A stretch of DNA of 51,972 bases. Origin: an archaeon (lineage in GTDB: Archaea; B1Sed10-29; WALL01; WAMD01). The stretch is taken from assembly GCA_024275655.1 (NCBI GenBank), contig JAJRYR010000036.1:1-51972 (forward strand), written 5' to 3'. The position numbers and the translations under genes were made by a program. This document shows, piece by piece, positions 5,269-47,354 of the stretch. Each line of letters starts with the position of its first letter. Within the stretch, counting starts at the first letter, position 1. The notes below the pieces were generated by a model, which had not been told where the DNA came from, searched no databases, and worked only from the letters and a program-made list of their open reading frames with translations.

Positions 5269-5919
5269 TTACTCTTTTTTGTGTGCTTTTTCTTGCTTTT
5301 CATTTGTTTCCTGTTTACCTAGTCTTAACGCAATTACTGCCAGCACTGCAATTATCACCAGCCCAGCTATTGCAATCACCAGCACGGAATTGTCCTCAGT
5401 TCCTAGTTCCTGCTCTGGCTGTTCAGATGGTTGAGCAACTGGTAGGGTTGCATTAACCGTTTCCTGAGTTTGCTCTTCTTGGGGCTGGATCTCCTCTGTA
5501 CCAAATATCTTTGCCTCTAGATCTGCCAGAAGTGCATCCATGTCAAATGGTGGGTCTGCATGGCTGGTTAGCCAGTAGTACAACCACTCGTGGTACTGGT
5601 CTACCTTCTGCATTAAATCGTAATCCCCATAGTTCTGCAAGCAGGCCTTTGTGTGAGCCCCACCATAGTACTCTAAAGCTATCACTCTTCCGTTCCAATC
5701 TCCCTCGTTAAAGTTCCACTCCTTCTCTGCCTCCCTTGCTCCCTTCAAAAGGTAATACGTACATTTGTCCCAGACCTTGAACTGTTCATAACACAGACCA
5801 GCGTCAATGTACTTTCCCTGGGTGGCTAGAGAATTGCATTGCTCCAAGCTCTCGTAGGTAACGCCTAAAACCAGGGTTGAAACCAGGATTATGCCCAGCA
5901 AAGCATATACGCATTTCAT
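5269..5919 (-). CDS. Secreted/membrane-anchored hypothetical protein (N-terminal signal peptide, acidic Q/E-rich linker, C-terminal TM anchor)
   Basis: N-terminal MKCVYALLGIILVSTLVLGV and C-terminal VLVIAIAGLVIIAVLAVIAL followed by basic residues. Confidence 0.4.
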   Translation of the reverse strand: MKCVYALLGIILVSTLVLGVTYESLEQCNSLATQGKYIDAGLCYEQFKVWDKCTYYLLKGAREAEKEWNFNEGDWNGRVIALEYYGGAHTKACLQNYGDYDLMQKVDQYHEWLYYWLTSHADPPFDMDALLADLEAKIFGTEEIQPQEEQTQETVNATLPVAQPSEQPEQELGTEDNSVLVIAIAGLVIIAVLAVIALRLGKQETNEKQEKAHKKE

Positions 5920-6989
5920 AGATTAATTTTTGGGTTAAATCTTTTAAAAAACTCTCTCACAGCGTACACTGGATTCTCCGTGAAAATCAGGTCCAGGTCT
6001 GGTGGGAAGCACCTCTTGTAATTCTTCCACTTGTACCTTTCATCCATAAACACAACCACACCGACATCATCTTCATTCCTTATCAGCCTTCCCGCCGCTT
6101 GTATTGCCCTGGCCATTGCCGGGTACAGGTATCCGTAGGTCCAACCAGCCCCAAACTTGTACTCATAGTAATCTATTAGTGCTTTGGTTTCCAGGTCATA
6201 CTCGTTCAGAGGTATTCCGACCACAATCACTCCAACTAGTTCCCTTCCAGGATAGTCCACACCCTCTGCCAGGCTCCCTCCAGCTACTGCTAAGAGCAGG
6301 GCTCCTTCCTCCTTCATCCTCTTGAAAAGGGACAAGAGCTCGTTGGTTTCCTCTGGCTTAGAGGACTCCCTCTGAACCAGCACCTGCCTAGTGGTAGCGA
6401 TGTAAGATCTAATTCCGTGAAGAACATCATAGCTGGGAAAGAAAACCGCAACGTTTCCAGGGATTGCCTCCAGGATCTCTGAGATCTTTTCCCCAATCCT
6501 CTTAAATTCTTCCTCGTTCCTCTTTGAGTATCTGGTGGTGACTCCAGTGTAAACAACATTCAAGCGGTTTTTCTTGGGAAACGGAGACCTGTAAATCTTT
6601 GTTACGGTCCGCTCCGGATCGAAGCCCAGCAAGTCCCGGTACATCTCTAGAGGAACTAGTGTTCCGGACATGGCAATTACTGAGTGGGCAGAATCCATGA
6701 GATCCTGGGTGGCCAGGCTGGGATCCAAGTTCTTGTAAGAGATTGTTATCCCGGTGCCGGTCTTCCACTTCTTTGCTATTCTAATGTAGCTGGGAATTTC
6801 CTCTGACCACAGAGAGAAGAACTTTGCCAATTTCAAGCAGGCGGACTTGTTTCTGTTGGTGGTTTCCAGGTAAACTAGACCCTGGTCGTGGAACTCTCCA
6901 ATCAAATCCTCGTCCCAGCTCGGGAGGTCCGAACTGGAAACCAAAGTCTCTTTTTGGTTTGCCAGCTTCTTTGCCAGGACTTCTTCCAT
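5916..6989 (-). CDS. XPD/Rad3-family helicase, C-terminal part (Helicase_C_2); frameshifted continuation of 7007-7810
   Basis: SGTL motif and the HD2 region (VAVFFPSY...AAGRLIRNEDDVGVVVF). The open frame extends upstream to 7082 as HYSLTGEKAEKEV... and overlaps the N-terminal ORF in another frame. Confidence 0.65.
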   Translation of the reverse strand: MEEVLAKKLANQKETLVSSSDLPSWDEDLIGEFHDQGLVYLETTNRNKSACLKLAKFFSLWSEEIPSYIRIAKKWKTGTGITISYKNLDPSLATQDLMDSAHSVIAMSGTLVPLEMYRDLLGFDPERTVTKIYRSPFPKKNRLNVVYTGVTTRYSKRNEEEFKRIGEKISEILEAIPGNVAVFFPSYDVLHGIRSYIATTRQVLVQRESSKPEETNELLSLFKRMKEEGALLLAVAGGSLAEGVDYPGRELVGVIVVGIPLNEYDLETKALIDYYEYKFGAGWTYGYLYPAMARAIQAAGRLIRNEDDVGVVVFMDERYKWKNYKRCFPPDLDLIFTENPVYAVREFFKRFNPKINL

Positions 6990-7006
6990 AGCCTTGGAAA
7001 GTTTTC

Positions 7007-7810
7007 TCAGATGCTTTTCCAGGTGCTTCGCACCCAGGAGCTTAACTTCCTTCTCTGCCTTTTCACCAGTAAGTGAGTAATGCTAACACTGAGGTGGTTT
7101 CTAACCCTCTCTGGAACGTTGTGTGCCTCATCTATGATAATGACTGAATCTCTCAATGTCTTTTTTGTCTTTATCAGAAAGCTCTCTCTTATTCCAGAGG
7201 AGAGCAAATGGAAGTAGTCTGCTATTATCACCTGGGAGTCTCTAGCTATCTGTGTCATTATCTCATAGGCACAGAGTGGTCGTCTCTCCCCTTCGTATGT
7301 AAACGCTTTGCACATATCCACTAGCTTGTGGGCTGGTGTGACCATTCCATAATTCGCTAGGAGCTTTTCTAAATGAAGTCTTGCTGTCTTCCTCTGGCTG
7401 GGGGTGAATCCTCTCGCCCAAGCGTAGTACGGGCAGGATTCGTTTTTCCTTCTCTTGTTGCAAACCTCGTAGAACTCGTCCACGTCCATGCCTTCCAGCG
7501 AGGGATCAACACATGCATACCTTCTCCCGATTATGTCTGCTGCCCTGAACTTGACCTTGTGCCTTTTTGCGATTCTCTCCAGCTCGTTCACCGCAATTTG
7601 ATGCTGGGATATCTTGGGAGTCAAGAAAAAGACTGTCCCATCGTTTTCCAGGGCCCAGGTGAGGGAAGGTCCCAAGACGGCTGCGGTCTTTCCTATGCCA
7701 GTTGGCGCATGGGCAAGCAAATGCTTACCGCTAGACACGGCCTCCCAAACGTCCATCAAGAACTCTTCCTGGTACTTCCTAGGCCTAGAGTGAGAGAAAA
7801 GGATCTTCAC
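7007..7810 (-). CDS. XPD/Rad3-family helicase, N-terminal part (DEAD_2, Walker A, DEAH box)
   Basis: Walker A APTGIGKT and DEAH box IIIDEAHNV. The ORF ends about 25 codons after the DEAH box. Confidence 0.65.
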   Translation of the reverse strand: MKILFSHSRPRKYQEEFLMDVWEAVSSGKHLLAHAPTGIGKTAAVLGPSLTWALENDGTVFFLTPKISQHQIAVNELERIAKRHKVKFRAADIIGRRYACVDPSLEGMDVDEFYEVCNKRRKNESCPYYAWARGFTPSQRKTARLHLEKLLANYGMVTPAHKLVDMCKAFTYEGERRPLCAYEIMTQIARDSQVIIADYFHLLSSGIRESFLIKTKKTLRDSVIIIDEAHNVPERVRNHLSVSITHLLVKRQRRKLSSWVRSTWKSI

Positions 7811-11878: not shown

Positions 11879-11936
11879 TTAAATACCTAGTCTTGCCAAA
11901 AATTATTGATGAAAATTGTTAAAACTAGGCACGGCC
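11879..11936. repeat. 58-bp perfect direct repeat, copy B; it contains the promoter and the first 10 codons of the 11906-12667 gene
   Basis: It is identical to 10389-10446. Confidence 0.9.
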
Positions 11937-16074: not shown

Positions 16075-16152
16075 GGGCGTGTAGCTCAGCCAGGATAGAG
16101 CGGGGGCCTTCTAAGCCTCAGGTCGGGGGTTCAAATCCCCCCACGCCCACCA
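16075..16152 (+). tRNA. tRNA-Arg (anticodon TCT), CCA encoded
   Basis: Hand-folded cloverleaf: acceptor GGGCGUG/CACGCCC, D stem GCUC/GAGC, anticodon stem GGGGC/GCCUC with loop CUUCUAA, T arm GGGGG-UUCAAAU-CCCCC, discriminator A, then CCA. Confidence 0.9.
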
Positions 16153-16184: not shown

Positions 16185-16661
16185 ATGATCCTCATGTCCT
16201 GGAACGTAAATGGGATCAGGGCTTGCTATAGAAATGGGTTTCTAGATTTCTTGAAGAAGTACAAACCATAATTCGACAGGGAAATCCACAAATACCTGGA
16301 CGAGCTGAGGAAGAAAAAGCCTGTGGTCTCGACTGGTGACTTTAACGTTGCCCACAGGGAGATCGATCTAGCAAACCCAAAACAGAATGTTAAGAACGCC
16401 GGGTTCACTCCAGAGGAGAGAGCATGGATGGACGAATTCCTCTCAGACGGTTGGGTTGATACGTTCAGATTATTCATGAAAGAGGATGGATATTACACTT
16501 GGTGGACATACAGATTCAATGCTAGAGCTAAGAACATAGGATGGCGTATCGATTACTTTATAGTTTCAGAGGATCTAGCCCCCAGGGTGAAGAGAAGCTG
16601 GATCCTCTCAGAGGTCTATGGCTCGGATCACGCACCTATTGGCCTAGAACTGGAAGTATGA
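16185..16661 (+). pseudogene. xth: Exodeoxyribonuclease III (Xth, AP endonuclease) remnant with an internal ~100-aa deletion and an in-frame TAA
   Basis: ATG 16185 gives MILMSWNVNGIRACYRNGFLDFLKKYKP*. The same frame then continues FDREIHKYLDELRKKKPVVSTGDFNVAHREIDLA...WILSEVYGSDHAPIGLELEV. These are the N-terminal and C-terminal conserved blocks of ExoIII. The middle third is missing. Confidence 0.65.
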
Positions 16662-21334: not shown

Positions 21335-21410
21335 GCTAGTGTTTTGGTAAATGTGAAATAAAATAGTAACACAAACCTAGCAAAATAAAAATCCCCAGAA
21401 AGTAATTCTA

Positions 21411-22601: not shown

Positions 22602-22619
22602 TGGGACATAATCGTTGGT

Positions 22620-33655: not shown

Positions 33656-33727
33656 ACTATCACCAAAAGGAGCATAAGTTTATGCACATAGATAGTATTT
33701 AAATTTAGTGGAAGGATTAAAACTATT

Positions 33728-34540
33728 ATGTTCGACATGATACTCCACCCGAAGACAGCTGAAAAAAAGCCTAGCGAGCTGCTCTTGTTTGCTCTGGCTC
33801 TTGGCATAGTGTCTAGTTGGTTAGCTATGGTTATAAGCAGGAACGGCGATGCTGGGCACCTAACTGTGGCGCTCATGTGTATAGGGGCGGCACCCTTAAT
33901 AGTGCACTTGATCTGGCTGGAGGAGAGAAAGGAGGAACAATTAAAGGGTGCGTTTTTGGAGAGGCACTGGCCGCTTATACAAGCATATGGTGCATTCTTC
34001 GTGGGGACTGTGCTAGCAATCTCCATGGTCTACGTTTTGCTTCCAGATTCACTGTCCCAAACAGCGTTTGCATCACAAATTAACGAGTTGAAAGCGATAA
34101 GAACTCTTGCCATTCAAGGAAATGCAGTATCCGGAGGGTGCGACTTTCTCTGTATACTATCCAACAATCTCCAGGTCCTGTTGTTTGTGTTGATATTCTC
34201 CTTCATATATGGGGCGGGAGCCATATACGTTATAACCTGGAACGCCAGTATTGTGGGCGTGTTGATAGGGGTGACCACAGAAGAGCTTGCGAGAAATATG
34301 GGTGTGCATGAATCGATCGCTTACCTGTTATCCCTCCCCATATCATTTGTCCGATTGATACCTCACGGCATATTTGAGATAACTGGATATCTAATTGGCG
34401 GTCTGGCAGGAGGTATGCTCTCCGCAGCAATAATGCGGGGTCACCTAAAGGAGAAAAGAATACTCCTGGACATAGCTGGAATGATAACCTTAAGTGTCAT
34501 TCTCATAATCATTGGTGCATTCATAGAAACACTGGGCTAA
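33728..34540 (+). CDS. Polytopic membrane protein (SpoIIM/DUF95-like)
   Basis: 6 predicted TM helices. Weak family resemblance. Confidence 0.3.
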   Translation: MFDMILHPKTAEKKPSELLLFALALGIVSSWLAMVISRNGDAGHLTVALMCIGAAPLIVHLIWLEERKEEQLKGAFLERHWPLIQAYGAFFVGTVLAISMVYVLLPDSLSQTAFASQINELKAIRTLAIQGNAVSGGCDFLCILSNNLQVLLFVLIFSFIYGAGAIYVITWNASIVGVLIGVTTEELARNMGVHESIAYLLSLPISFVRLIPHGIFEITGYLIGGLAGGMLSAAIMRGHLKEKRILLDIAGMITLSVILIIIGAFIETLG

Positions 34541-34976
34541 ACAAGCTAGCACGTGTCATTGCAAAAACGAACAAAAAAGCTAGGAGATTCCCTAGATAGA
34601 GTGCAGGTATCGCTTTTTTCTCTTCTAGGCCTAGGATCAAAGCTCCCAACGTGCCAGTGTACAACCCACTACCTGGGAGAGGAATTGCCACAAACAACAT
34701 TAAACCCCAAAAACCGTACTTGTCCACATATTTAGATACCTTTGCACGTATTGTCATCACCTTTCTCTGTACGAATTTGAGTTTCATGAATTTCTCAAGA
34801 ATATACTCAAACCCCAGATAAACCAGTGGTACTATTGCCATGCTGACAATAAATGGAAGGACATAACCCTCAAACCAGCCCAACCCACGAAAGCTAGAAT
34901 ACAGCACTGCTCCCCTAACTTCAATCCCAGGAATGACTGCGAGCAAGAGTGGTATTAAGAACTCGGGGATGGACAT
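34521..34976 (-). CDS. Small polytopic membrane protein
   Basis: 4 TM helices, 151 aa. Confidence 0.3.
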   Translation of the reverse strand: MSIPEFLIPLLLAVIPGIEVRGAVLYSSFRGLGWFEGYVLPFIVSMAIVPLVYLGFEYILEKFMKLKFVQRKVMTIRAKVSKYVDKYGFWGLMLFVAIPLPGSGLYTGTLGALILGLEEKKAIPALYLGNLLAFLFVFAMTRASLFSPVFL

Positions 34977-34983
34977 AATCAGA

Positions 34984-36057
34984 TCACTTCTTTGTTGTTT
35001 TGGATTTTGATTTTGTCTTTCTAACTGTTCTTGGTTTTACGCTTTTCTTTAGGAAGTGTTTCATGTGTTTCTCTGACTTTGATAGCATCTCCTTCTCTTC
35101 CCTCACAAACTCCTTGAACTGCTTTCTTAGATCTCTCTCAACTTCCCGATAATCCTTGCCAGTTATCCCTGCTATCCTCTCTGCCATTTTACTCAGCTCT
35201 ACCGGGAAAAGAATCTTGCTGGATTTTCCTTCTGCCACCTTCTTCAATGCTTCAAGGTACAAGTATTGCAATGCTGGCTCATTGAGCTTTCCTGCTGCCT
35301 CTCTCACGGCATCTATTCGTATGGCATTCGCGAGTGCCTCTTGCTCTGCTGCCTTTTTGTATTCCTCCGCCGCCTTTTTCTTATGCATAGCATCCATAAC
35401 TTCCTCTGGCAGTTTCACTTCCTTTATTTCAACCTTCTCAATTTGTACTCCCCAATCTTCTGCTAAATCCATCAGTCCCTTGGAAACTAGCTTGTTTATT
35501 TTATCAATATTAGAGATAACTTCTGATAGCGTCATCTTACCTATAACATCTCTCAAGTGGGCATACGTGGCGCTGACGGCAGCTTCTCTGTAATCCCTTA
35601 CTTCCAAAACTGCCTTTTTTACATCCACGACCTTAAGATATATTATAGCATCAATCGTGAGCTCGATTTCGTCCTTGGTCACCACCTTTTGCTTGGGCAC
35701 ATCTATGGTCTGCACTCGTGTGTCTATGATCACTGCCTCATCAATGAACGGAATGAGAACTCTCCAACCTGGACCGTATATATCCAGAAACTTACCCATT
35801 CTAAATACAACGGCCCTTTCGTAATCCTTTATCTCTATGACAAAGGGAGGCATCTTCAGGTACAATAAACCTAAAAAGAACATAATTCCCAGAAGGAGAG
35901 CCAATTCCTCGATTATGTTGAGATAAAATAGAGTGAACAATGCCAAAATACCAAAAACAACTATCACAAGAAAAACAAATACATCCCGCTTATCATCCTT
36001 CTTTTTAGACTTCTTCTTGGGGAGCTTCATAGCTATCACATATTTAAATCCCGCCAC
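34984..36057 (-). CDS. SPFH/Band 7 (stomatin/prohibitin-like) protein
   Basis: N-terminal TM then ERAVVFRMGKFLDIYGPGWRVLIPFIDEAVIIDTRVQTIDV and a long C-terminal coiled coil. Confidence 0.75.
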   Translation of the reverse strand: MAGFKYVIAMKLPKKKSKKKDDKRDVFVFLVIVVFGILALFTLFYLNIIEELALLLGIMFFLGLLYLKMPPFVIEIKDYERAVVFRMGKFLDIYGPGWRVLIPFIDEAVIIDTRVQTIDVPKQKVVTKDEIELTIDAIIYLKVVDVKKAVLEVRDYREAAVSATYAHLRDVIGKMTLSEVISNIDKINKLVSKGLMDLAEDWGVQIEKVEIKEVKLPEEVMDAMHKKKAAEEYKKAAEQEALANAIRIDAVREAAGKLNEPALQYLYLEALKKVAEGKSSKILFPVELSKMAERIAGITGKDYREVERDLRKQFKEFVREEKEMLSKSEKHMKHFLKKSVKPRTVRKTKSKSKTTKK

Positions 36058-36082
36058 CCTATATAAAACCTAGTGTTGTGTT

Positions 36083-36289
36083 ATGGCGAAGAAGGTTAAT
36101 ACCCTGGTAATAACCGTTGATAGGGATGATGACCTAGGGAAGAAAACAAACCTAGCTGGACCCATAGTGGGGGAAAAAGCATGCATAAAGGCAGCTGAAA
36201 CCCTAGCCATTGCTGACCCTGGAGAGTCGGATGCAAATGCAATGTTTGCTGCAATAAAAGCATATAGAGAACTAAAGGAATTGGGATAA
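36083..36289 (+). CDS. N-terminal segment of a DUF373-like gene, ending at an in-frame TAA
   Basis: Same reading frame as 36293-37357, separated only by TAA-AAC. It shares the NTLVITVDRDDDLG motif with EIAIITGHPSRG of the next ORF. Confidence 0.4.
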   Translation: MAKKVNTLVITVDRDDDLGKKTNLAGPIVGEKACIKAAETLAIADPGESDANAMFAAIKAYRELKELG

Positions 36290-36292
36290 AAC

Positions 36293-37357
36293 GTGGAAAT
36301 AGCCATAATAACCGGACATCCAAGCAGGGGGATAAAAGCAGATAGAGAGGTTGCAAGACAGTTGGAAGAGCTAAAAGAAAAATTTGGGTTTGAGGAGGTC
36401 GTACTGGTTAGTGATGGTGCAGACGACGAGCAATTGATACCCGTCATCCAGGGGATAACGCGGATTGCAAATATCCAGAGAGTGGTTATAAAGCAGTCAC
36501 AAGCCATAGAGAGCTCATTTTACCTGCTGAAGGAAGTGCTGAAAGACCCCCATTTTGCTAGGATTATATTCGGTCTTCCTGGGATCGCACTGGTGATTTA
36601 TGCTATTGTATATTTACTTGGAATCGAAAGGCTTTCTTTCAATGTGATAATAGGGCTCATAGGAGCTTACTTGATAATGAAAGGGTTTGGAATAGAGGAC
36701 TCAATAATGAAGTGGTTATCCTCATTCAAGAAGACCACCAGCATTGAAAGAGCTAGCTTTCCCTTGTACATTTCCTCTCTGCTAGTCATTCTGTTGGCCA
36801 TATGGTCAGGAATGGATGCATCCAATTACTTCTCAAGGCAATTGGCAGTACTCGGAGAATCAAATACGGTAATACCTGCTATTGCATTCATTAGCGGTGC
36901 ACTGGGTCTGTTAACATTGGCAATACTACTATTTTTTGCCGGGAGAATCGTGGACATGTACCATAGAGGAGAAGTGCTCCAAATAAGGAGATACGCTAGG
37001 TCTTTAGTTACTACAATTGCAGCGTATTTAATTCTGGAGGTAGCGATAAAGTTCTTCATAGCCTGGACTTCCAGGTTAATCAGCGGTCCAACATTCCTAG
37101 ACATCCTAATAATGGTCATTCTAGCCGTGCTAATAACCTTCCTTGGCTTCTCCCTGATTGCAGGTATTTACAAAAAACTAATCGTGAGACACATAAAGAA
37201 AGGTATGATCGTGAAAAGAGATGGGAAAGAGATTGGAAAGGTGGCCGGCGTAGATGGAAAGAAGGGAATCATACACATAACTACTGAAGAAAAGCGGATT
37301 AGCATCCCCATAACCAAAATTGAATTCCTAGGTCAGGGGGAAATAGAGATCCTCTAA
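36293..37357 (+). CDS. DUF373-like archaeal membrane protein (GTG start as called)
   Basis: Cytoplasmic N-domain, then 6-7 TM helices, then a C-terminal beta-rich domain. Confidence 0.45.
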   Translation: MEIAIITGHPSRGIKADREVARQLEELKEKFGFEEVVLVSDGADDEQLIPVIQGITRIANIQRVVIKQSQAIESSFYLLKEVLKDPHFARIIFGLPGIALVIYAIVYLLGIERLSFNVIIGLIGAYLIMKGFGIEDSIMKWLSSFKKTTSIERASFPLYISSLLVILLAIWSGMDASNYFSRQLAVLGESNTVIPAIAFISGALGLLTLAILLFFAGRIVDMYHRGEVLQIRRYARSLVTTIAAYLILEVAIKFFIAWTSRLISGPTFLDILIMVILAVLITFLGFSLIAGIYKKLIVRHIKKGMIVKRDGKEIGKVAGVDGKKGIIHITTEEKRISIPITKIEFLGQGEIEIL

Positions 37358-37393
37358 CTCATTCTTATAAATCCCTCCTACCTAGTTATAGAC

Positions 37394-39475
37394 ATGAGAG
37401 TTTCCCATTTACTAGCGGGGATTTTGATTCTGGCAACAGCCCTAGCGATAAACCCGTCAATAGTCACTAGACTAGAAGCGAACGTGTACATAACTGGCGA
37501 GTTGGAGGTAAATGGGGATATCCAGTACATAGATCTTAACCTCACAATACCTCAAAACACGACCAACCAGCTTTCTATTTGTAATGCTACTTTGATAGAT
37601 GTGGATGGAGTTAAGATGGCCCACCTACACTTTGAAAATCCTTCTGGTACAATTAGATACAAAATAGTGTGCCAGGTAGAGACAAGTGAACAGATAACCA
37701 CCAGCCTGCCAAGGAACTACGACACCGACGAGTACCACGAGTACACTCTGCCAAGTGAAGGAGTACCTAGTGACGACCCCCAGATAAAAGAATTGGCTGA
37801 AAGCATAGTGGCTGGCAGTGCATCTGATTTTGAAAGACTGGCTAGATTAACACAGTGGGTACACAACTACATAAATTACGATGAGTCAGTAACTGGTGAT
37901 TATCTAGATACATACACAATACTGAGCAAAAGAAAGGGAGTGTGTGTTGAGTATGCCACTCTGTTTGTTACCCTCGCGAGAGCTTTAGGTTATCCGACTA
38001 GATTCGTTGGGGGAATAGCGTACGGTGACCAAGGTCCAACCGGCCACATGTGGGCGGAGGTGTATCTAGGGAAGTGGGTCCCATTTGATCCCACATGGAA
38101 CCTGGGAGGAAGTCTAGACGCGACACATATTTCATTTTACAAAACAAGGTACAGAGCAATAGAATCGAAAATAAAATACGTAGGTACTGGAGGATATGTT
38201 AACTGGGAAACGACAACATCTGAAGAGGGGTTCAATTCAGGACTAGGAGATATCGTGATAGATTACATGGAAACTGGGGACTACCCTGTAGAATACAAAA
38301 CTTACATGCCTGCGAAGAAAATCGGATTTTCCTCCTCGACGTTTGTGCTGTTGAACTTAACCACAGACAGATACCTTGTAGTGCCAATCACCATAACAGA
38401 ATGCTCGGGATCAGAGGACATTGTGGACATACCCAATAAAACGGTCACAATTCCCTTGGAACCGAATGTGCCAAAACTAGTTTACTGGAAGGTGTACTCT
38501 AACAAATTGGATCCAAAATACATTTATACCTGTCCATTAACCATAAACTCCGCGTTTCTAGAAACTTCCAGCCTGGATCTGCAAATACTCTCCATGCTAG
38601 TCCCCTCATTTGAAGTTTCTGTATCAAATTCCAAGCCCATATTAGACGAAAATTTCTATGTTTATGTTGAATCCAAAGACTCTCTCAAATTTTATGCTGT
38701 CTACAATGATCAGCTCGAGGAAGGATACGGAACTGATGTCATACTTGGATTTACCGCGAACAAACTAGGAACATCCAACCTAGTTGTCACATCCAGCAAG
38801 GGGGGTGTGATAGAGATACCCATTTCAACCTCTGCACCTGAGGGACTTTCCATATCTAGGGTACTGTACCCCAAGGCCGTGATAGTGGGGCAAACTGAGA
38901 CAATTCAGGTATTGCTTTCCAATCCATCCAAAACTGCTGTACCTGTCACGATATATCTCACCAATGATGGAAAAATCACTAAAAAGATATTGAAGTTGAG
39001 CGAGAACAAGATAGTATCCTTCAATGTGACATTCAACACCCCTGGATATCATCAACTTGTCATTGAGCTGGAGGGCGGAGGAGTGTATGACAGAAAGACT
39101 GCAATGATAAAGGTGGTGGAAAGGCCTGATATTGCTATAACAAAACAGCAAATTGTTGGTGATTTCATAATCCTAGATCTCAATGTTTCTGGTGATCCTG
39201 TTAACCCACAAATAACCATAGATGGAAAACCGTATACGTTCTCGGAGCATTTCAAGGCAAGATTGGACTCTGGAAAACACCTTATATCCATCATGTGGGA
39301 AGACGAACTTGGAAATACATACAAGAAAGAACTGAGTATAGATATTCAGTCATCCGAAATAAGTAACCTCAATATGTTTATGCTAATCTTTATTCTAATG
39401 TTGGCGGTTGCGTTGGTACTAGTAATAATAGCAATACTACTCATAGTAAAAACAAAACCAAAAGTGGCTCAGTAG
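37394..39475 (+). CDS. Secreted, membrane-anchored transglutaminase-like cysteine protease domain protein
   Basis: Signal peptide. Core GVCVEYATLFVTLARALGYPTRFVGG...TGHMWAEVYLGKWVPFDPT supplies the Cys-His-Asp. C-terminal TM. Confidence 0.7.
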   Translation: MRVSHLLAGILILATALAINPSIVTRLEANVYITGELEVNGDIQYIDLNLTIPQNTTNQLSICNATLIDVDGVKMAHLHFENPSGTIRYKIVCQVETSEQITTSLPRNYDTDEYHEYTLPSEGVPSDDPQIKELAESIVAGSASDFERLARLTQWVHNYINYDESVTGDYLDTYTILSKRKGVCVEYATLFVTLARALGYPTRFVGGIAYGDQGPTGHMWAEVYLGKWVPFDPTWNLGGSLDATHISFYKTRYRAIESKIKYVGTGGYVNWETTTSEEGFNSGLGDIVIDYMETGDYPVEYKTYMPAKKIGFSSSTFVLLNLTTDRYLVVPITITECSGSEDIVDIPNKTVTIPLEPNVPKLVYWKVYSNKLDPKYIYTCPLTINSAFLETSSLDLQILSMLVPSFEVSVSNSKPILDENFYVYVESKDSLKFYAVYNDQLEEGYGTDVILGFTANKLGTSNLVVTSSKGGVIEIPISTSAPEGLSISRVLYPKAVIVGQTETIQVLLSNPSKTAVPVTIYLTNDGKITKKILKLSENKIVSFNVTFNTPGYHQLVIELEGGGVYDRKTAMIKVVERPDIAITKQQIVGDFIILDLNVSGDPVNPQITIDGKPYTFSEHFKARLDSGKHLISIMWEDELGNTYKKELSIDIQSSEISNLNMFMLIFILMLAVALVLVIIAILLIVKTKPKVAQ

Positions 39476-39580
39476 TTACTCCTGGTCATCACCCTTCAGC
39501 CTGGGGCGATGTCATCATTGCCAGCTAGTTTTTGTTTTGGGTTAATATAAGAGTTACAGTAAAATTGTCCCACTAACTAA

Positions 39581-39928
39581 TCACAACTCCAAAACTTTCT
39601 CCATCTTCTTTATCAATCTCTTTTTCTCTGGGCAGTCTACCAGTGCCTCTTTTATGACATCCAGTATTGTCCTAACAGGAATGATTTTCACCTTGCCCAC
39701 CTTCTCTTTGGATAAAAAAACATCGTCCCTATTGGCTTCTGGAATGATAACCCTTTTTATACCTGCCTCTATAGCGGCCTCTATTTTTGGTGTCACTCCA
39801 CCAACAGGTAAAACTTCGCCTCTAATGCTGAGAGATCCTGTCATAGCGATGTCCTGCCTAACTGGGATCCCCTCAAGTGCGGAGATGACTGAAGTGGCCA
39901 CGCTAACCGAAGCGGAGTCCCCTTCCAC
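39581..39928 (-). CDS. lonB: LonB protease, C-terminal proteolytic segment (catalytic Ser and Lys); same frame as 39980-41518
   Basis: [16 protein letters not shown] holds the catalytic Ser and [16 protein letters not shown] the catalytic Lys. GTG as called. The frame is open upstream to the TAG at 39980. Confidence 0.8.
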
Positions 39929-39979
39929 ACCCTCATACGTCTGTAGGAACTGTATATGAATGTCCTTACCAGCTAAACC

Positions 39980-41518
39980 CTAGCCCTTATATTTCTTTAC
40001 TATTGCGGAAACATTCAACACCGCTTCCTTCGCTATCTCCCCCAATTTTCCAGTAGCAATTATCTTTCCTTCCTTTGACTGAGATGGGGAGATGTTTGCC
40101 TCTATTGGAAGCACAAGCCCACCATTACCAAGAACAGCCAATCCATTTACCCTTCCTATCCTCTTCCCCTTGGTAATCAATACCTCGTACTCTTTCCTTT
40201 CCTCTATGTACTTGTCAGCCACTTGCTCTTCTAGAGTTTTAGCTAACCCCCTGGCCTCCTCAACATCCTCTGGAAGTACATATTGGTGTCCCTTTGCATT
40301 TGCAATATCCCCTGCGGCTCTAACCAATCCACCCAGATCCCTAAGTTTCAAAGTTAGTCTATTCTTCCTTCCAGCCCTTCTCTTGGCCTCTAGAATTATG
40401 AGCTCTACAGCCTCCTTGGTAAAATGAGGTATCTTGCCATCCTTCACTACTTCTTGGGCAACGAACCTAACCAGCTTTCTTCGGTTCTCTGGCGTGTCGG
40501 GCATGGTATCGTTCAAATAGATCTCGTATCCGTATCCTCTAATCCTTGACCTCAATGCAGGATGCATCTTTTTTAAATCAATCTCGTTTCCAGCCGCCAC
40601 CAGAATAAAGTCACAGGGGACAGGTTCCGTTCTTACCATGGCTCCGCTGCTCAATTCGCTTTGGCCAGTTATGGGGAATTTCTTCTCTTGCATGGCAGTC
40701 AGCAAGTCCTGCTGGGATTTGGGGCTCAAGGTTGCAATCTCATCTATGAACAGCACGCCCTTATGTGCTCTGTGTATCATACCTGGAACCACTCGCATGT
40801 GTGCTGGGGTTCCAAGGCCTGCGGACTGCAAGGGGTCGTGCTTAACATCTCCAAGCAACGCTCCTGCCTTTGCGCCAGTGGCATCTACAAAAGGAGCCAT
40901 GGTCTTTCCGGAATTGTCTATAAGAAGCTTGGGTGCCATGCTCTTTTCTGGATTGGTGGCCCTCACCTGCGTGGAGAGGATAACTCCTATCCCCAATAGA
41001 CCGGCCACAACCAGTGAAGCAGCAGCCATAGTTTCACTGACCCAGCCCATAGACAACATTATCCATGGAAGGGTCAACAGCACCAAAAGTATGAGTGTTG
41101 CTCCAAACCTAGAATTCGCAGTTTCTGAAAGTTCCTTCATCCTCTCTTGTTCCACTATCTTCCTTCCTTCTCCAGCTGGAACAGTTTTTATTTTAGGGGT
41201 ATTTGGATCTATCGGATTTGGATAAACTAGTATATCCTCCAGCTCAGTTACAGGCAAAAGCTCTGCCATTGCCTGAGCCAGCATGGATTTTCCAGTTCCA
41301 GGCTCACCCAATAGGAAGACATTCCTTCTTTGCCTCGCTGCCTTCTTTACTATCTCCACAGCGTGATCCTGTCCAATTATCTGGTCTATCAATTTTTTGG
41401 GGACGGGTATTTCCTCGGTTGTTTTGAAATCCCAGTCAACCACATATCCATTTCCAGCGCTATTTTCGCCTCTAGTTGAAACCTCCTCCCTAGACCGCTT
41501 GACCTTTCTCTTGACCAT
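39980..41518 (-). CDS. lonB: Membrane-bound archaeal Lon protease LonB, AAA+ module plus the start of the protease domain, terminated by an in-frame TAG
   Basis: Walker A GEPGTGKS. The two-TM insertion inside the AAA domain is the LonB hallmark. The ORF ends ...SAIVKKYKG*, mid-protease domain. Confidence 0.85.
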   Translation of the reverse strand: MVKRKVKRSREEVSTRGENSAGNGYVVDWDFKTTEEIPVPKKLIDQIIGQDHAVEIVKKAARQRRNVFLLGEPGTGKSMLAQAMAELLPVTELEDILVYPNPIDPNTPKIKTVPAGEGRKIVEQERMKELSETANSRFGATLILLVLLTLPWIMLSMGWVSETMAAASLVVAGLLGIGVILSTQVRATNPEKSMAPKLLIDNSGKTMAPFVDATGAKAGALLGDVKHDPLQSAGLGTPAHMRVVPGMIHRAHKGVLFIDEIATLSPKSQQDLLTAMQEKKFPITGQSELSSGAMVRTEPVPCDFILVAAGNEIDLKKMHPALRSRIRGYGYEIYLNDTMPDTPENRRKLVRFVAQEVVKDGKIPHFTKEAVELIILEAKRRAGRKNRLTLKLRDLGGLVRAAGDIANAKGHQYVLPEDVEEARGLAKTLEEQVADKYIEERKEYEVLITKGKRIGRVNGLAVLGNGGLVLPIEANISPSQSKEGKIIATGKLGEIAKEAVLNVSAIVKKYKG

Positions 41519-41570
41519 CTTATCACCAAAACTAGAACCGCCAATTATTTATTGTATTCAGTATAATAAA

Positions 41571-42533
41571 ATGCTTGTGTTGCTGGTTTATCTCTCAGGA
41601 GAAGGCAATGGATTTCTAGGTAGAGTAGAGATAGAGGAACTGGGGAAAGCGTATCACTGTCCAGTGAGAGCGAAGGAAAGACTAGCTCTAGTGGAGGATT
41701 GTGGAAAGGATTTCGTGTGGAGATTGGCGTATGCAAAACTTGCTGGAAAGATAATATCAGAAGGAAACCTGGGCGAAATAGAAGTATTGATGGCGGATCC
41801 CTATTTTAAAGAGGACCACACTGGCTTTGCAGTTAATGTTTGGAAGCTAAATACAGAAGTGGATAGCTCTGAGTTAAAGAAAAAATTTGGGGACTTGATT
41901 TCTGGGAAGCCGAATCTGAGCAACCCCAGGGAAATATTTGATCTATTTGTTAAGGAAAAACGCATTTGGATAACAAGAAGGATTTGGGAGAACGATCCGA
42001 AGGACTTTGCTGGGAGGCACCCTCAGAGGAAACCTGTTTTCCATCCAACAAGTCTAAAACCAAAGATCGCCAGGTGGCTGATCAATCTATCCGGGCTAAA
42101 ACCTGGACAGAGCCTCTTAGACCCCTTCTGCGGTGTTGGAGGCATACTGGTTGAAGCCGGCCTGCTGGGGATAAAATCCACTGGAGTGGAATTGGATAAA
42201 CGCTGGGCAGAGGGAGCGAGAAGGAACCTGGAATACTATGGAATAGAGAATGCTAGGATAATAAATGGGGATTTCTTCAAGTGGGAGAACGGCCAGTACG
42301 ACGCCATTGTAACTGACTTGCCCTATGGAAGGAGCTCAAAGATGCGGGGGGAGATGCTAAACTTCTATGGGCAGGCATTTGAAAAATTTGCAGAACACTC
42401 AAACAAAGCAGTTATAATGGGTCCCATGGACTTAGAAGCGACTCTAAAAAGATGTGGATGGAATGTAAAAAGAAAACTCTCACTTCCAGTCCATAAGAGC
42501 CTGAAAAGGTGGGTTCACATCTGCCTGCGATAG
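41571..42533 (+). CDS. THUMP-domain tRNA guanine-N2 methyltransferase (Trm11/Trm-G10 family); the track ORF 41397 is trimmed to the ATG at 41571 to remove overlap with lonB
   Basis: SAM motif I DPFCGVGGILVEA and motif IV DLPYG. Confidence 0.55.
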   Translation: MLVLLVYLSGEGNGFLGRVEIEELGKAYHCPVRAKERLALVEDCGKDFVWRLAYAKLAGKIISEGNLGEIEVLMADPYFKEDHTGFAVNVWKLNTEVDSSELKKKFGDLISGKPNLSNPREIFDLFVKEKRIWITRRIWENDPKDFAGRHPQRKPVFHPTSLKPKIARWLINLSGLKPGQSLLDPFCGVGGILVEAGLLGIKSTGVELDKRWAEGARRNLEYYGIENARIINGDFFKWENGQYDAIVTDLPYGRSSKMRGEMLNFYGQAFEKFAEHSNKAVIMGPMDLEATLKRCGWNVKRKLSLPVHKSLKRWVHICLR

Positions 42534-42904
42534 ATCTCCCAGTACTTTCTCACTTGCCTGCTGGTCACTTTCCATTTCCCAAAGTGCCTGTGGGACACCA
42601 ACGCCCCAGAAAAGCTCTTAGGTATGTGCAACAATTCATGGATGATTGTCTTTTCCTTTTCCTCCCGAGGGAGCTTATCAAACCTTTCCGAGATAACCTC
42701 TATAACATAGCTGGGTTCCCAGTCAAAGGCCACCTGGAAAACCCTAGACAATCCCCATATTCTAGCTAGGGCTCTAGATTTGCTGCCCCTGCTCCTCACG
42801 AACCTGACTCTAGACAGATCTATGTGGTCCCATCCCAGCTTATCAACTATGTCCTTAGCTAGAATTGCCAGGTCTGGAGCTGGTTCAAATTTTATCTTGC
42901 TCAT
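42515..42904 (-). CDS. Putative zinc metallopeptidase (HExxH; SprT/DUF45-like)
   Basis: TIIHELLHI motif. Confidence 0.35.
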   Translation of the reverse strand: MSKIKFEPAPDLAILAKDIVDKLGWDHIDLSRVRFVRSRGSKSRALARIWGLSRVFQVAFDWEPSYVIEVISERFDKLPREEKEKTIIHELLHIPKSFSGALVSHRHFGKWKVTSRQVRKYWEIYRRQM

Positions 42905-42996
42905 AAACTCACATCCGACAAGTGCCGATTCTAGGATTTGGTATCAGCAATATTTAATAAGGGGTACAATAAAAATTTGGCTGAGGTGATAAACGA

Positions 42997-44106
42997 ATGC
43001 TGGGGTTGACACCACTTGCAGAAAAGGCGATAAAAAAATTGAAGGAAGTTCACAAACCCGAAATAGACAAAAGATTAAGAGCTGCCCTAGAGAAAGAAAG
43101 AGAGTACATACCAAACGACCATCCTCTATTCCACGATGTTATTGATAAGTTGCTGGACTTCAACATGCGAGGTGGAAAGCGATTAAGGCCATCATTCATT
43201 GTGGAGGGGTATAGGTGTGTTGGTGGAAAGGACATGGATGCCATTTATGATGCCAGCCTGGTTATTGAAGGTAGCGAGGCCTGGCTCCTAATTCACGATG
43301 ACATAATGGATGATGACACCCTGAGAAGAGGGAAACCAACGATGCATGTCATGTACGAAAATGAACTCAAGAAGAGGGGTGTCCAGTTACCTCCAGAAAA
43401 GCTGAAACACATGGGGATATCCCTAGGCATGACCGTGGGGGATCTGCAAGCTGTTCTCACATACGAATGGCTGACAAAACCAGACTTTCCCAGGGAGCTG
43501 AAAGAAAAGGCACTGCAGAGGTATAACTTGGTCTTGAGATTAACTTGCTACGGGCAGATCCTAGATGTCATGGCCGAAACTATGCCACCAGAAGAAATCA
43601 AAGAGGAGGACGTGCTGCTGATTCACAGCTTGAAAACAAGCGCATACACATTGTGGGGTCCCCTTCAGATAGGCGCAATATTGGGGAATGCCACAGACAA
43701 GCAACTGGAAATCTTCTACAACTATGGCTACCCACTCGGTATAGCATTCCAGCTCCAAGATGACATTCTAGGTCTGTTTGGTGACGTCAAGAAAACTGGA
43801 AAACCTGCCCATTCAGACCTAAAAGAAGGAAAAAGAACCTTGTTGATAATCAAAGCTCTGGAAAATGCAACACCAGAGCAAAAGAAGAGATTACTTGAGA
43901 TATGGGGGAACAAGAACTTAACAGACGAGGATGCAGAGGAAGCTAGGGAGATAGTAAGAGAAACTGGCTCACTGGATTACAATAGAGAGCTAGCAAGAAA
44001 GCTGGCAGAAGAAGGGATGGCCGCAATGGAAGCCGCAGACTTTGATCCAGAGGGAAAAGAGTACTTGCTGGGAATTGCAGAGTTCCTCATAAACAGGGAG
44101 GTCTAG
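42997..44106 (+). CDS. trans-Isoprenyl diphosphate synthase (geranylgeranyl diphosphate synthase-like)
   Basis: FARM LIHDDIMDDD and SARM FQLQDDILG aspartate-rich motifs. Confidence 0.75.
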   Translation: MLGLTPLAEKAIKKLKEVHKPEIDKRLRAALEKEREYIPNDHPLFHDVIDKLLDFNMRGGKRLRPSFIVEGYRCVGGKDMDAIYDASLVIEGSEAWLLIHDDIMDDDTLRRGKPTMHVMYENELKKRGVQLPPEKLKHMGISLGMTVGDLQAVLTYEWLTKPDFPRELKEKALQRYNLVLRLTCYGQILDVMAETMPPEEIKEEDVLLIHSLKTSAYTLWGPLQIGAILGNATDKQLEIFYNYGYPLGIAFQLQDDILGLFGDVKKTGKPAHSDLKEGKRTLLIIKALENATPEQKKRLLEIWGNKNLTDEDAEEAREIVRETGSLDYNRELARKLAEEGMAAMEAADFDPEGKEYLLGIAEFLINREV

Positions 44107-45365
44107 GTTACTAGTCTTCCCCTTGTAAGCAGGTAGGGTGTGATCAAATCACCCCACCTATAATCTTCTTTGCTCGCAAGTTCTACTTGCGAGAGCACAT
44201 CAAACAAGTTCCCCACAAATACGCACCCTTTAACCGGGATTCTCTTTTCCCCATTTATCAGTATTCCATGATCAACGGTTAATGTGAAATCTCCAGTCTT
44301 CTCATTTATGGTGTGGTACCCCATCAAGGATCTCAATACTATGCAGTTGTCCCAACCATCCATGCTCTCCCTATCTGGGAAATCCACAACTATGTTAGTA
44401 ACATCTATTGATATCTTTGATCCTCCGTGCCTGAATCCATTTCCGGTGGATTCTGCCCTAACTTTCGTGGCGGTTATAGTATCATAAATAAAAGTTTTCA
44501 AAACGCCCTTATCTAACAACACCTTTTTCTTTGTCGGGACTCCTTCATCATCACTCGAAGTTGAACCTGGGAAATAGGGGATCCAGGGGTCCTCAACTAT
44601 TGTCAATTCCCCTAGAACTTTTTTACCAAGCTTTCCTGTCCAGGGACTGGTCTTCCTCCTCACCTCATCCCCATCAATCCAGTCCAGGATAACAGACAAA
44701 AACTCGTCAATTATGTCTGGATGCAAAGCAATCTTTCCATCCCACCCCATCTTTTTTGCCTTTGAGTTCTCAACAGCTTCCCTCCCCGCGTTTTTCCCCA
44801 GTTCTCTTGGAGCAAAATCTAGAACTCCTGACTCCCAAAAATCAAATCCTGAGCCAGTTCCTCTTTTTGCTCCAAATCCAAGAGATATTCCATTCTCCTT
44901 GTCAGAAAAGTTCACACCATTTGAATTTTCTATATATGTGTGGGTTTCACTAACACTGACCTCGCCCTGCATTGGTTCTGCCCCAGTCTCCTTTATTCCA
45001 TCTATACCCTCAAGAACTATATTCACAAGGTCTGCGAACTCCAGCTCAGAGACCTGCTTTGACCAGGTTTTCACCTTCTGGTAATCTTTCTTTTCTGGAA
45101 AGTGATAGCCCTTTACAGGTTCTGTGTACTTGGTCATTTTGACTGCACTCTTCAATGCTCTATCAAATTCCTTCTCTAGGTCAAAGGAGACCATTGAAAC
45201 TCTCCCCTTCACATTCAGCCTAAGTCCATATCCTTGAAATATCTTCTCCAAACCTGCCTCTATCATGTCCCTATTATACCTAGCCTCAATTGTTCTCCCT
45301 TTCATGAAAAATATCTCTGCCTCCCCAAACCTCTCTGCCCTTCTGAGCATTGATTCCAAGCTCAT
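44103..45365 (-). CDS. pmbA: TldE/PmbA-family metalloprotease subunit
   Basis: Paralog of the upstream TldD with PmbA/TldD fold features. Overlapping stop and start suggest an operon. Confidence 0.65.
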   Translation of the reverse strand: MSLESMLRRAERFGEAEIFFMKGRTIEARYNRDMIEAGLEKIFQGYGLRLNVKGRVSMVSFDLEKEFDRALKSAVKMTKYTEPVKGYHFPEKKDYQKVKTWSKQVSELEFADLVNIVLEGIDGIKETGAEPMQGEVSVSETHTYIENSNGVNFSDKENGISLGFGAKRGTGSGFDFWESGVLDFAPRELGKNAGREAVENSKAKKMGWDGKIALHPDIIDEFLSVILDWIDGDEVRRKTSPWTGKLGKKVLGELTIVEDPWIPYFPGSTSSDDEGVPTKKKVLLDKGVLKTFIYDTITATKVRAESTGNGFRHGGSKISIDVTNIVVDFPDRESMDGWDNCIVLRSLMGYHTINEKTGDFTLTVDHGILINGEKRIPVKGCVFVGNLFDVLSQVELASKEDYRWGDLITPYLLTRGRLVT

Positions 45366-46720
45366 CCCAGCAACACCTCTTTAACAAAAACGTGTGGTCC
45401 CCCATCCCCTACTGGGACGCTTTGCCCGAATTTTCCACAAAGACCTGCTCCCCCAACCTTCAAGTCTTTTTCCACTTTCTCAACATTGTGGAGTATATCT
45501 AAAAAGTTCCCGGAAAAGGTAACATCTCTTAACATCTGCTTTATTTCCCCATCTTCTATCCAATAGCCATGCTGGGCTGTGAACTGGAAGAACCCAGAGT
45601 TTGGATCAGTACTTCCCCCAGTAGAGCTGTATATGTAAACCCCTTCCTTTATATCTTCCAGCATTTCCTCTAGTGAATAATCTCCCTTCTCAAAGAATGT
45701 GTTGCTCATCCTAACCAGCGGAAATCTTGAGACCCCACCGGCCCTAGCATTTCCAGTAGATCTAGTCCCCAACTCGCTGGCCGTTTCCCTTGAGTGCATG
45801 AAGCCCTTCAAAACCCCACTTTCTATCAAAACCGTTCTTTGACCAGGGACGCCCTCATAATCATAGCCATAGCTACCATAACCTCTCGGGATAGTCGCGT
45901 CATCAATTATGGTCACGTGTTCTGACCCTATCCTCTTTCCAAGCTTATCCTTGAGTATTGAGGTTCCATTTACGATTTCGTCCGCTTCGCAGGCATGGCC
46001 GACTGCCTCATGAGCAAAAACTCCTGCTGCATGGGGATCTAGGATCGCGGGGTACTTACCAGCCGGAGCTCTCTTTGCCTTCAATAGGTTTTTGGCATTG
46101 TTCACTGCTTCTTGGAACTTTCCATCTATCTTGTCAAATATCTCAAGGCCATAAAGGCCTCCAATCGATTCAAATGCAGATATAACAAAGTTCGATTTGG
46201 CTGTTGCGGATAGGAATATTCTAGTCCTGGGATACGACTGGGAAATGAAGGCCCCCTCCGTATTCAAGTAAAGCCGTTTAGCCTTCACATCAACATAATA
46301 AATTTGGATGTCCTTCACCTTACTAGGTATCTCTAAAGATCTGTAGGTCTCCTGTACCAATCCTGCCTTCTCGTCAATGCTCACGTCCAAGCTCTTCCTG
46401 GGTCTAACAACCCACTTGTCCTGGTAGACCTTCTCTTTTGAAAGCTTTGATCTCATGGGCCTTGGATTTGCCTTTGCTAGCTTTACTGCCTCCTTTAATA
46501 CTAGCTCCCAGTTCCTTGGATCAGTTGAGAAGGAAAAGCCAAAAGAGCCTTTAATCAAAACTCTAATTCCTATTCCAACATTTGCAGAAACCATAAGGTC
46601 CCTCACATTTCCATTTTCGAGCAATACCTTGTTCCTCCAGCTTCTCAACAAATTTGCCTCTGCAAATTCGTACCTCTCTAGTTCCCTCTGAAGCTTGTCA
46701 AGATCTAGACCAAAATCCAT
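45362..46720 (-). CDS. tldD: TldD metalloprotease
   Basis: FAHEAVGHACEAD is the HExxxH TldD signature. Confidence 0.75.
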   Translation of the reverse strand: MDFGLDLDKLQRELERYEFAEANLLRSWRNKVLLENGNVRDLMVSANVGIGIRVLIKGSFGFSFSTDPRNWELVLKEAVKLAKANPRPMRSKLSKEKVYQDKWVVRPRKSLDVSIDEKAGLVQETYRSLEIPSKVKDIQIYYVDVKAKRLYLNTEGAFISQSYPRTRIFLSATAKSNFVISAFESIGGLYGLEIFDKIDGKFQEAVNNAKNLLKAKRAPAGKYPAILDPHAAGVFAHEAVGHACEADEIVNGTSILKDKLGKRIGSEHVTIIDDATIPRGYGSYGYDYEGVPGQRTVLIESGVLKGFMHSRETASELGTRSTGNARAGGVSRFPLVRMSNTFFEKGDYSLEEMLEDIKEGVYIYSSTGGSTDPNSGFFQFTAQHGYWIEDGEIKQMLRDVTFSGNFLDILHNVEKVEKDLKVGGAGLCGKFGQSVPVGDGGPHVFVKEVLLG

Positions 46721-46752
46721 ACCAGAATAACTCAGAAGAAGTTAATAAGTTT

Positions 46753-46826
46753 TGGAGCGGGGGCTGGGATTTGAACCCAGGTCCTCCGGTCTGCAGCCGG
46801 ACGCATAGCCCCTCTGCCACCCCCGC
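46753..46826 (-). tRNA. tRNA-Cys (anticodon GCA), CCA encoded
   Basis: Minus-strand fold: acceptor GCGGGGG/CCCCCGC, anticodon stem UCCGG/CCGGA with loop CUGCAGA, T arm CUGGG-UUCAAAU-CCCAG, discriminator U, then CCA. Confidence 0.9.
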
Positions 46827-46830
46827 ACCG

Positions 46831-46866
46831 ATTTATTTTTGTCATAACTGGTTAAAAAGGTTTTAT
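46831..46866. promoter_or_regulatory. tRNA-Cys promoter (BRE/TATA ctttttaa ~27 nt upstream of the tRNA 5' end on the minus strand); it is copy 1 of a ~36-bp direct repeat
   Basis: atttatttttgtcataactggttaaaaaggtttta lies immediately 5' of tRNA-Cys. It is nearly identical to 47317-47354. Confidence 0.6.
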
Positions 46867-46869
46867 AGC

Positions 46870-47139
46870 TCACTTATAAACATTTTTTCTCTTGCCTATT
46901 TTTACAATGATGATTATTTCTTTACTAGGGTATACTCGGAACAAGATTCTGTACTTCCCAACCCTCAAGCGATAGGTGTGTTGCCAACCTTCCATTTTGA
47001 TTACATCCAGATTAATAAAAGGAAATTCCCGTAATTGATTGATCTTCTCCAAAATTCGTGATCTAGTTCTCGGAGGAATACTCTTCAACTCAGAATGTGC
47101 TCGAGGTAAAAAGCGAATCTCAAATACCATATAGCTCAA
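46870..47139 (-). CDS. relE: RelE/ParE-family type II toxin (TTG start as called; internal ATG at 47130)
   Basis: ...WQHTYRLRVGKYRILFRVYPSKEIIIIVKIGKRKNVY is the RelE/ParE C-terminal signature. Confidence 0.75.
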   Translation of the reverse strand: MSYMVFEIRFLPRAHSELKSIPPRTRSRILEKINQLREFPFINLDVIKMEGWQHTYRLRVGKYRILFRVYPSKEIIIIVKIGKRKNVYK

Positions 47140-47316: not shown

Positions 47317-47354
47317 ATTTTATTTTTGTCATAACTGGTTAAAAAGGTTTTTAT
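47317..47354. promoter_or_regulatory. Copy 2 of the tRNA-Cys promoter repeat, 1-2 bp upstream of the antitoxin ATG (predicting a leaderless TA transcript)
   Basis: attttatttttgtcataactggttaaaaaggttttta differs from copy 1 by only two 1-nt indels. Confidence 0.6.

Follow-up and report, generated by a model that had tools for sequence, protein, structure and literature searches.

A LonB protease gene interrupted by a single in-frame TAG codon on a 52-kb archaeal contig

The lonB reading frame and its internal TAG

Archaeal LonB (MEROPS S16, TIGR00764) is described from the solved structures of the Thermococcus onnurineus protein (TonLonB, 3K1J and 4ZPX) and of the Archaeoglobus fulgidus protease domain (1Z0W), and combines Walker A and Walker B motifs with an insert between them, a LID domain, a Lon_C protease domain and a catalytic Ser-Lys dyad. 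Here we describe a lonB gene of the metagenome-assembled contig JAJRYR010000036.1 (assembly GCA_024275655.1) of an uncultured archaeon, whose positions 1 to 51,972 were analyzed as a whole and are hereafter called the window. The gene encodes all of these elements and its read-through product matches archaeal LonB from end to end, with 65-69% identity to Thermococcus LonB; however, its reading frame is broken by a single in-frame TAG at codon 513, and none of the other archaeal LonB genes examined is broken in this way. We conclude that this TAG is an ordinary, non-programmed single-base lesion in a canonical archaeal membrane LonB gene. Such a lesion falls in a known category, that of the single-hit pseudogene or of the sequence error.

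Other described systems share features with this locus. Young prokaryotic pseudogenes with a single lesion show one disabling substitution in a gene whose remainder is conserved, and other single-lesion genes nearby, as is the case here; however, lonB is known to be broken from the assembly alone and no relaxed constraint is measurable in it. Pyrrolysine decoding, found in methanogens and other archaea, likewise involves an in-frame UAG within a conserved enzyme gene. Furthermore, Coulondre and Miller reportedly found amber hotspots at CCAGG sites of lacI in Escherichia coli, ascribed to deamination of 5-methylcytosine, and the ancestral sequence that can be reconstructed for the lonB site (GGC-CAG-GG) would hold CCAGG, the CTAGG of the window being the product of deamination of its inner C.

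The two open reading frames (ORFs) of lonB lie in one frame, and the gap between them consists of the TAG (39980-39982) and 17 sense codons that are identical or nearly identical in orthologs (Table 1). Translation and the profile match thus agree with an earlier note on this DNA, which had described a lonB broken by one in-frame TAG and followed by 17 codons of the expected Lon sequence. The read-through product matched the archaeal LonB equivalog TIGR00764 at positions 3-607 of 608, in one stretch spanning the TAG and with a score of 949 bits (curated cut-off, 516.6 bits), while the 512-aa ORF alone scored 733 bits and covered only positions 3-479. The Pfam domain Lon_C also spans the TAG (residues 436-627 of the read-through LonB, E = 2.5e-35), and the domains LonB_AAA-LID and AAA_32 were found in the same product. 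The continuity of the match across the TAG is far beyond what a chance arrangement would give.

The AAA+ module, the putative membrane anchor, called as a hydrophobic stretch of the translation, and the LID domain are all complete within the 512-aa ORF. Alignment to the solved LonB structures places the TAG inside the protease fold, about 75 residues into the domain (Lon_C begins at residue 436) and 22 residues ahead of the catalytic Ser535, and the A. fulgidus protease-domain crystal construct aligns to LonB residues 443-641. Ser535 and Lys578 align with the two positions mutated to Ala in the T. onnurineus crystal construct 3K1J. The earlier note had put the TAG between the AAA+ module and the catalytic segment: it was right that the Ser and the Lys lie downstream of the TAG; however, the interruption does not fall on a domain border.

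As the sequence stands, translation would stop at codon 513 and give a product of 512 residues in which the AAA+ module and the membrane anchor are intact and the protease fold is incomplete. The Lon_C domain and the Ser-Lys dyad are encoded in frame, but the TAG parts them from the AAA+ module, and the sequence does not encode them in a single polypeptide. Because Ser535 and Lys578 would be lost, the 512-residue product is probably proteolytically dead, as had been argued in the earlier note, and it is probably also unstable.

It is extremely unlikely that this arrangement represents a functional split or truncated LonB, in which the 512-aa AAA+ membrane protein would act alone, as an unfoldase or chaperone, or together with a C-terminal fragment started at the GTG at 39928. 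The completeness of the AAA+ module, membrane anchor and LID domain in the upstream ORF agrees with such a product, and the codons downstream of the TAG are still under purifying selection; however, this constraint reflects the history before the lesion and has no power for very recent events. Furthermore, the protease fold itself is cut, and the downstream ORF, which lacks the first ~95 residues of this domain, could not yield a folded one. Only one purine-rich motif precedes the GTG, and its spacing of 1-2 nt would be too short for a ribosome-binding site. The same arrangement was seen at none of 163 orthologous loci.

The interrupted codon in related archaea

The closest relatives are uncultured Micrarchaeota (DPANN) from deep-sea hydrothermal samples, represented by loci of assembly GCA_053993375.1 and one Logan run (L081/L082 and L166) and by an ENA scaffold (L083). 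LonB shows 96% amino acid identity to these relatives, whose intact orthologs (P0001 and P0010) have 645 residues. Nucleotide identity to the sister contigs is only 85.6% across 13 kb with conserved gene order, and they are therefore regarded as sister species and not as the same population. The interrupted codon reads GGC TAG GGT in the window, GGC CAG GGT in L083 and GGG CAG GGT in L081, and L082 likewise has CAG. Because CAG is present in the nearest relatives, the lonB stop is one C to T transition away from a Gln codon.

More distant LonB orthologs show P, Q, H, A, G or K at this position, and the column holds K, R, E, T, Q, A, G, I, D, V or H across the 163 orthologous loci from genome and metagenome collections. 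None of these 163 loci has a stop at the column or anywhere in the surrounding 140-residue segment. The column is a variable linker position, probably exposed on the protein surface. An apparent second split lonB, in L083, was rejected, as the break is a scaffold gap of Ns. In two unrelated contigs of metagenome-assembled genomes (MAGs), lonB was called in three pieces (L164, 1900-3756) and in two pieces (L165, 1909-3804); broken lonB ORFs recur in MAG data, at differing positions.

The sequence after the TAG shows ratios of nonsynonymous to synonymous substitution (dN/dS) of 0.063 and 0.052 against two sister sequences, and its dN to the outgroup L001 is 0.183, compared with 0.190 for L081. 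A relative-rate count over seven proteins (3,189 columns) gave 57 amino acid changes specific to the window and 70 specific to the sister. Relaxed selection after the TAG was thus rejected, with a dN/dS of about 0.06 and no extra distance to the outgroup. The earlier note had proposed comparing the orthologs at this codon, and had set against a defect the case in which orthologs stop at the same point and the C-terminal ORF is degenerate; the comparison gave CAG in the nearest relatives, no stop in the 163 loci and a C-terminal ORF under constraint. From these sequences, either the lonB lesion arose very recently or the cells do not carry it in their DNA, and these tests do not separate a very young lesion from an unreal one because the nearest relative is far (dS 0.4-1.2).

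The TAG lies at the edge of a divergent patch of ~310 nt (Table 1), whose divergence is mostly synonymous (dS of 1.2 versus 0.36) and whose encoded residues all occur in functional LonB proteins. Across the conserved block 33700-46900, identity to the sister is a mosaic, ranging from 66 to 95% in 300-nt windows. The patch is probably a recombination-like tract, one of many, and not a sign of decay, and no better donor for it was found among 166 loci. The mosaic pattern itself looks like frequent recombination among related vent Micrarchaeota.

The comparison with the lacI hotspots breaks down at the level of the whole window, where CCWGG is not depleted (observed/expected 1.06); a methylation-driven CCAGG hotspot is thus unsupported. 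Nor did the Pfam survey of the long ORFs of the window turn up a DNA cytosine methyltransferase. Among other short words counted in the whole window, CTAG is over-represented (observed/expected 1.54), GCGC, TCGA and CGCG are depleted (0.57-0.69), and GGCC, like CCWGG, is neutral.

TAG as a terminator and other broken genes of the contig

TAG terminates 13 of the 47 long ORFs of the window, among them those of S-adenosylmethionine (AdoMet) decarboxylase, AdoMet synthetase and two AAA_14 ATPases. At orthologous ends it alternates with the other stop codons: the tldD-like gene 44103-45365 ends in TAG in the window and in TAA at the same terminal position in L081, the methyltransferase gene 41397-42533 in TAG versus TGA in L001, and 14507-15040 in TAG versus TGA in L166. 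The reverse swap is shown by 47351-48643 and 33728-34540, which end in TAA and whose relatives end in TAG. Furthermore, the AdoMet_dc domain reaches the C-terminus of its TAG-terminated protein (profile position 107 of 107 at residue 122 of 122). In this lineage TAG serves as a normal terminator, which swaps with TAA and TGA in orthologs.

We give next to no weight to the proposal that the amber codon is reassigned or expanded in this organism, to pyrrolysine or to another amino acid. Its sole evidence is the in-frame TAG itself, against which stand the interchangeable use of TAG as a frequent terminator, the Pfam domain that ends at a TAG-terminated C-terminus, and a second in-frame stop of the contig that is TAA and not TAG. 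Two tRNA genes were found in the window, tRNA-Arg(TCT) and tRNA-Cys(GCA), and the sister contigs add no others; neither a suppressor tRNA nor any tRNA with a CUA anticodon was found in the 52-kb window or in the sister contigs, and the Pfam survey of all long ORFs of the window found no pyl gene. The earlier note had already judged genome-wide amber recoding unlikely from the use of TAG at the ends of speH, MAT and two ATPase genes, which the swaps at orthologous stops bear out, and had suggested a search for suppressor tRNAs or a pyl cluster; that search came out negative, for tRNAs in the window and the sister contigs and for pyl genes in the window.

Site-specific readthrough of the UAG, programmed or leaky, would yield some full-length active LonB, and we consider it very unlikely. 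In its favor, all 132 codons after the TAG are preserved in the same frame and read as LonB throughout, the stop falls in a variable linker at which any residue would be tolerable, and a review of archaeal recoding argues for the expression of certain interrupted genes through recoding (PMC8211752); the review also reports one annotated frameshift that vanished on resequencing. However, the stop is not conserved, since the nearest relatives have CAG and none of the 163 orthologs a stop, and no suppressor tRNA accompanies it. The 136-nt segment that surrounds and follows the TAG has a minimum free energy of -37.4 kcal/mol versus a shuffle mean of -38.1 kcal/mol (z = 0.2), and 114 of 200 shuffled sequences fold equally well; no PYLIS-like or other structure was found in this region. 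No archaeal readthrough context is defined against which the surroundings of the TAG could be scored. The locus therefore differs from pyrrolysine-decoded genes in the use of TAG, in the unconserved stop, in the lack of tRNA-CUA and pyl genes in the window, in the lack of downstream structure and in the identity of the second stop. In addition, decoding of UAG cannot rescue the in-frame TAA, the frameshift and the deletion that the contig carries in other genes.

These other lesions were found by screening for stops with long open frames on either side, combined with the Pfam coverage of every long ORF. The earlier note was silent on them, and we count them as the most informative context of the lonB TAG. 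The gene for a DUF373 membrane protein has an in-frame TAA at a site that is GAA in L081 and L082 and encodes Glu in L001; its orthologs have 424-425 residues, the 68 residues ahead of the TAA are identical to those of L081, conservation at the flanks of the stop is 100%, and the joined product matches the Pfam family in one stretch (positions 2-330 of 335). The XPD/Rad3 helicase gene is split by a frameshift into one ORF with DEAD_2 and one with HBB and Helicase_C_2, which lie in different frames. Its alignment to the intact 631-aa ortholog in GCA_053993375.1 (98% amino acid and 95.8% nucleotide identity) shows a single gap, where the window has GTGAA-AAGG and the sister GTGAAGAAGG.

The fourth gene is an Exonuclease III-like remnant, which consists of 28 N-terminal codons (MILMSWNVNGIRA...), a TAA and then, of the domain, only its C-terminal third, at Pfam profile positions 140-225 of 225. 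The middle of the protein appears to have lost about 100 residues. In our reading the 28-codon piece would be the N-terminus of the same gene, on the basis of its SWNVNG motif rather than of a scored match. The gene order shared with L166 ends precisely at the tRNA-Arg gene beside this remnant. The Exonuclease III-like remnant is the exception among the broken genes, in that the other three (lonB, DUF373 and XPD) are all present and intact in the sister assembly GCA_053993375.1. The other ~45 genes of the window show full-length Pfam coverage.

Four genes of the contig are thus broken, by a TAG, a TAA, a frameshift and a probable deletion, and the breaks are not specific to TAG. This mix of lesions is our main argument that the contig has no decoding peculiarity specific to TAG: because three further genes are broken (one of them by our reading of the remnant), and by other types of lesion, no special decoding is needed to explain lonB. 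Some candidates from the screen were rejected. An in-frame TGA (22599-22601) seemed to join ORF 21411-22601 to the DUF460 gene; however, stand-alone homologs of 395 and 381 aa align with the ORF end to end. The other same-frame ORF pairs were neighboring genes or shadow ORFs of the opposite strand.

Table 1. Coordinates of the lonB gene, its elements and the other interrupted genes in the window.
Feature	Position	Strand	Remarks
lonB, complete reading frame	39581..41518	-	645 sense codons, one internal TAG and terminal TGA; translation, TIGR00764
Internal TAG, codon 513 of lonB	39980..39982	-	CAG (Gln) in sister genomes
lonB upstream ORF, 512 aa	39980..41518	-	AAA+ module with membrane insert and first ~75 residues of protease domain
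Sense codons between TAG and GTG start, n = 17	39929..39979	-	In frame; identical or nearly identical in orthologs
lonB downstream ORF, 115 aa, GTG start	39581..39928	-	Carries catalytic Ser535 and Lys578
Walker A GEPGTGKS, LonB residues 71-78	41285..41308	-	
Walker B VLFIDE, LonB residues 255-260	40739..40756	-	
Hydrophobic membrane insert, LonB residues 138-182	40973..41107	-	Between Walker A and B; aligns with membrane-anchor region of 4ZPX
Catalytic Ser535 of LonB	39914..39916	-	Aligned with mutated position of 3K1J
Catalytic Lys578 of LonB	39785..39787	-	Aligned with mutated position of 3K1J
Divergent patch, ~310 nt	39689..40000	-	77-79% nucleotide identity to sisters, flanks 90-95%; begins ~20 nt upstream of TAG
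DUF373 membrane-protein gene	36083..37357	+	In-frame TAA 36287-36289 (KELG*NVEIAI)
XPD/Rad3 helicase gene	5916..7810	-	1-nt deletion at A-run 7060-7063
Exonuclease III-like remnant	16185..16661	+	Beside tRNA-Arg 16075-16152; in-frame TAA 16269-16271

Other features of the window were recorded alongside these genes. Three paralogous AAA_14 ATPase genes are present (4029-5213, +; 7865-9106, -; 10564-11814, +), the last two of which also encode DUF4143. Compared with L166, in which Nre and XPD are immediate neighbors, these two are insertions, and they may be mobile or variable genes. Long shadow ORFs lie opposite conserved genes, among them 36070-36507 (-), which overlaps the 5' part of the DUF373 gene, 40638-41225 (+) and 39654-39959 (+); they are conserved in relatives because the real gene on the opposite strand is conserved. 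The region 18959-23471, where a HerA-like ATPase gene (791 aa, -), the gene for a 396-aa protein with few homologs (28 in 1.8 billion representatives) and the gene for the DUF460 coiled-coil protein (RNase H-fold) adjoin one another, may be a small nucleic-acid-processing cluster. Single genes encode a protein with a MazE-like antitoxin domain (11906-12667, +), a PIN-domain protein (50915-51376, -) and a protein of the "phage metallopeptidase" family that is 98% conserved in the sister genomes (42515-42904, -).

Origin and meaning of the lonB lesion

The earlier note had left three options for the TAG: a sequencing or assembly error, a recent nonsense mutation and site-specific readthrough. 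The first two remain, and readthrough is unsupported in view of the unconserved stop, the z-score of the fold and the other lesions. We infer that the T is present in the DNA of the cells rather than in the assembly alone, and put at about an even chance the reading that the sampled Micrarchaeota population has a genuine nonsense allele here, very recent in evolutionary terms and one of several recent gene-inactivating lesions on the contig. In favor of a nonsense allele, the stop is one C to T change from CAG, the relatives have no stop, and TAG functions as a terminator. The mix of lesions, with two nonsense changes, a frameshift and a deletion, is also typical of pseudogene formation, and the Exonuclease III-like remnant would be hard to obtain by base-calling error.

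A sequencing, consensus or assembly error, with the organism having CAG and an intact LonB, is quite possible, though short of an even chance. The T, the TAA of the DUF373 gene and the missing base of XPD would then come from low coverage, from a damaged template (C deamination, G oxidation) or from imperfect polishing of the MAG. Changes from C to T and from G to T are classic damage-type artefacts, and those at the stops of lonB and the DUF373 gene fit this pattern. The XPD indel falls at an A-run, three single-base lesions occur within 52 kb in genes that are otherwise 96-100% conserved and strongly constrained, and related MAG contigs of the same collections carry very low k-mer coverage in their names (cov 1.6-2.9). 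The calls of lonB in two or three pieces in other MAGs agree with an error as well. However, about 4% of random substitutions create stops by our own estimate, so two stops from random errors would need ~50 substitution errors in 52 kb, which is improbable for a short-read contig of this length at adequate depth. With a long-read error profile, far more than one frameshift would be expected, and the internal deletion of the Exonuclease III-like gene is not a base-calling error.

Several observations weigh against a genuine allele and in part favor the error. The three point lesions are single hits in genes without other signs of decay (dN/dS 0.05-0.06), the relaxed selection that could be expected downstream of a lesion was not observed, and the window branch shows no excess of amino acid changes. 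It would be unusual under normal selection for several conserved genes to be knocked out independently and so recently, and consensus errors look the same; fragmented lonB ORFs were seen in other MAG assemblies too. LonB is essential in Haloferax volcanii, the one archaeon where this has been tested (PMC4343526).

Furthermore, the base at the TAG rests on one assembly only, among the protein collection and the JGI metagenomes searched, and no second assembly confirms it. Exact look-up of the 512-aa product in the protein collection gave no other contig that encodes it, and there the 512-aa and the 115-aa products form single-member clusters from one contig. An exact DNA pattern with Y at the TAG site had no match in the JGI metagenomes, a protein-guided scan of metagenome contigs gave no match closer than 78%, and the C-terminal 156 aa, used as a query, matched nothing at ~100% but the 115-aa ORF of the window itself.

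Beyond a recent nonsense allele among several lesions, a bolder reading, which we hold to be unlikely, would place this vent Micrarchaeota lineage in an early burst of gene inactivation, with two DNA-repair genes (for the XPD helicase and the Exonuclease III AP endonuclease) and the otherwise indispensable LonB among its targets so far, or would have LonB kept active by low-level UAG readthrough. Loss of base-excision repair could itself explain the C to T and G to T changes that created the stops.

For the interpretation of MAGs, the locus indicates that recoding should be proposed for an in-frame stop only once the other lesions of the entire contig have been taken into account. Should the TAG be real, this would be a DPANN archaeon without the sole membrane ATP-dependent protease of archaea, which would be of modest interest for genome reduction in symbionts.

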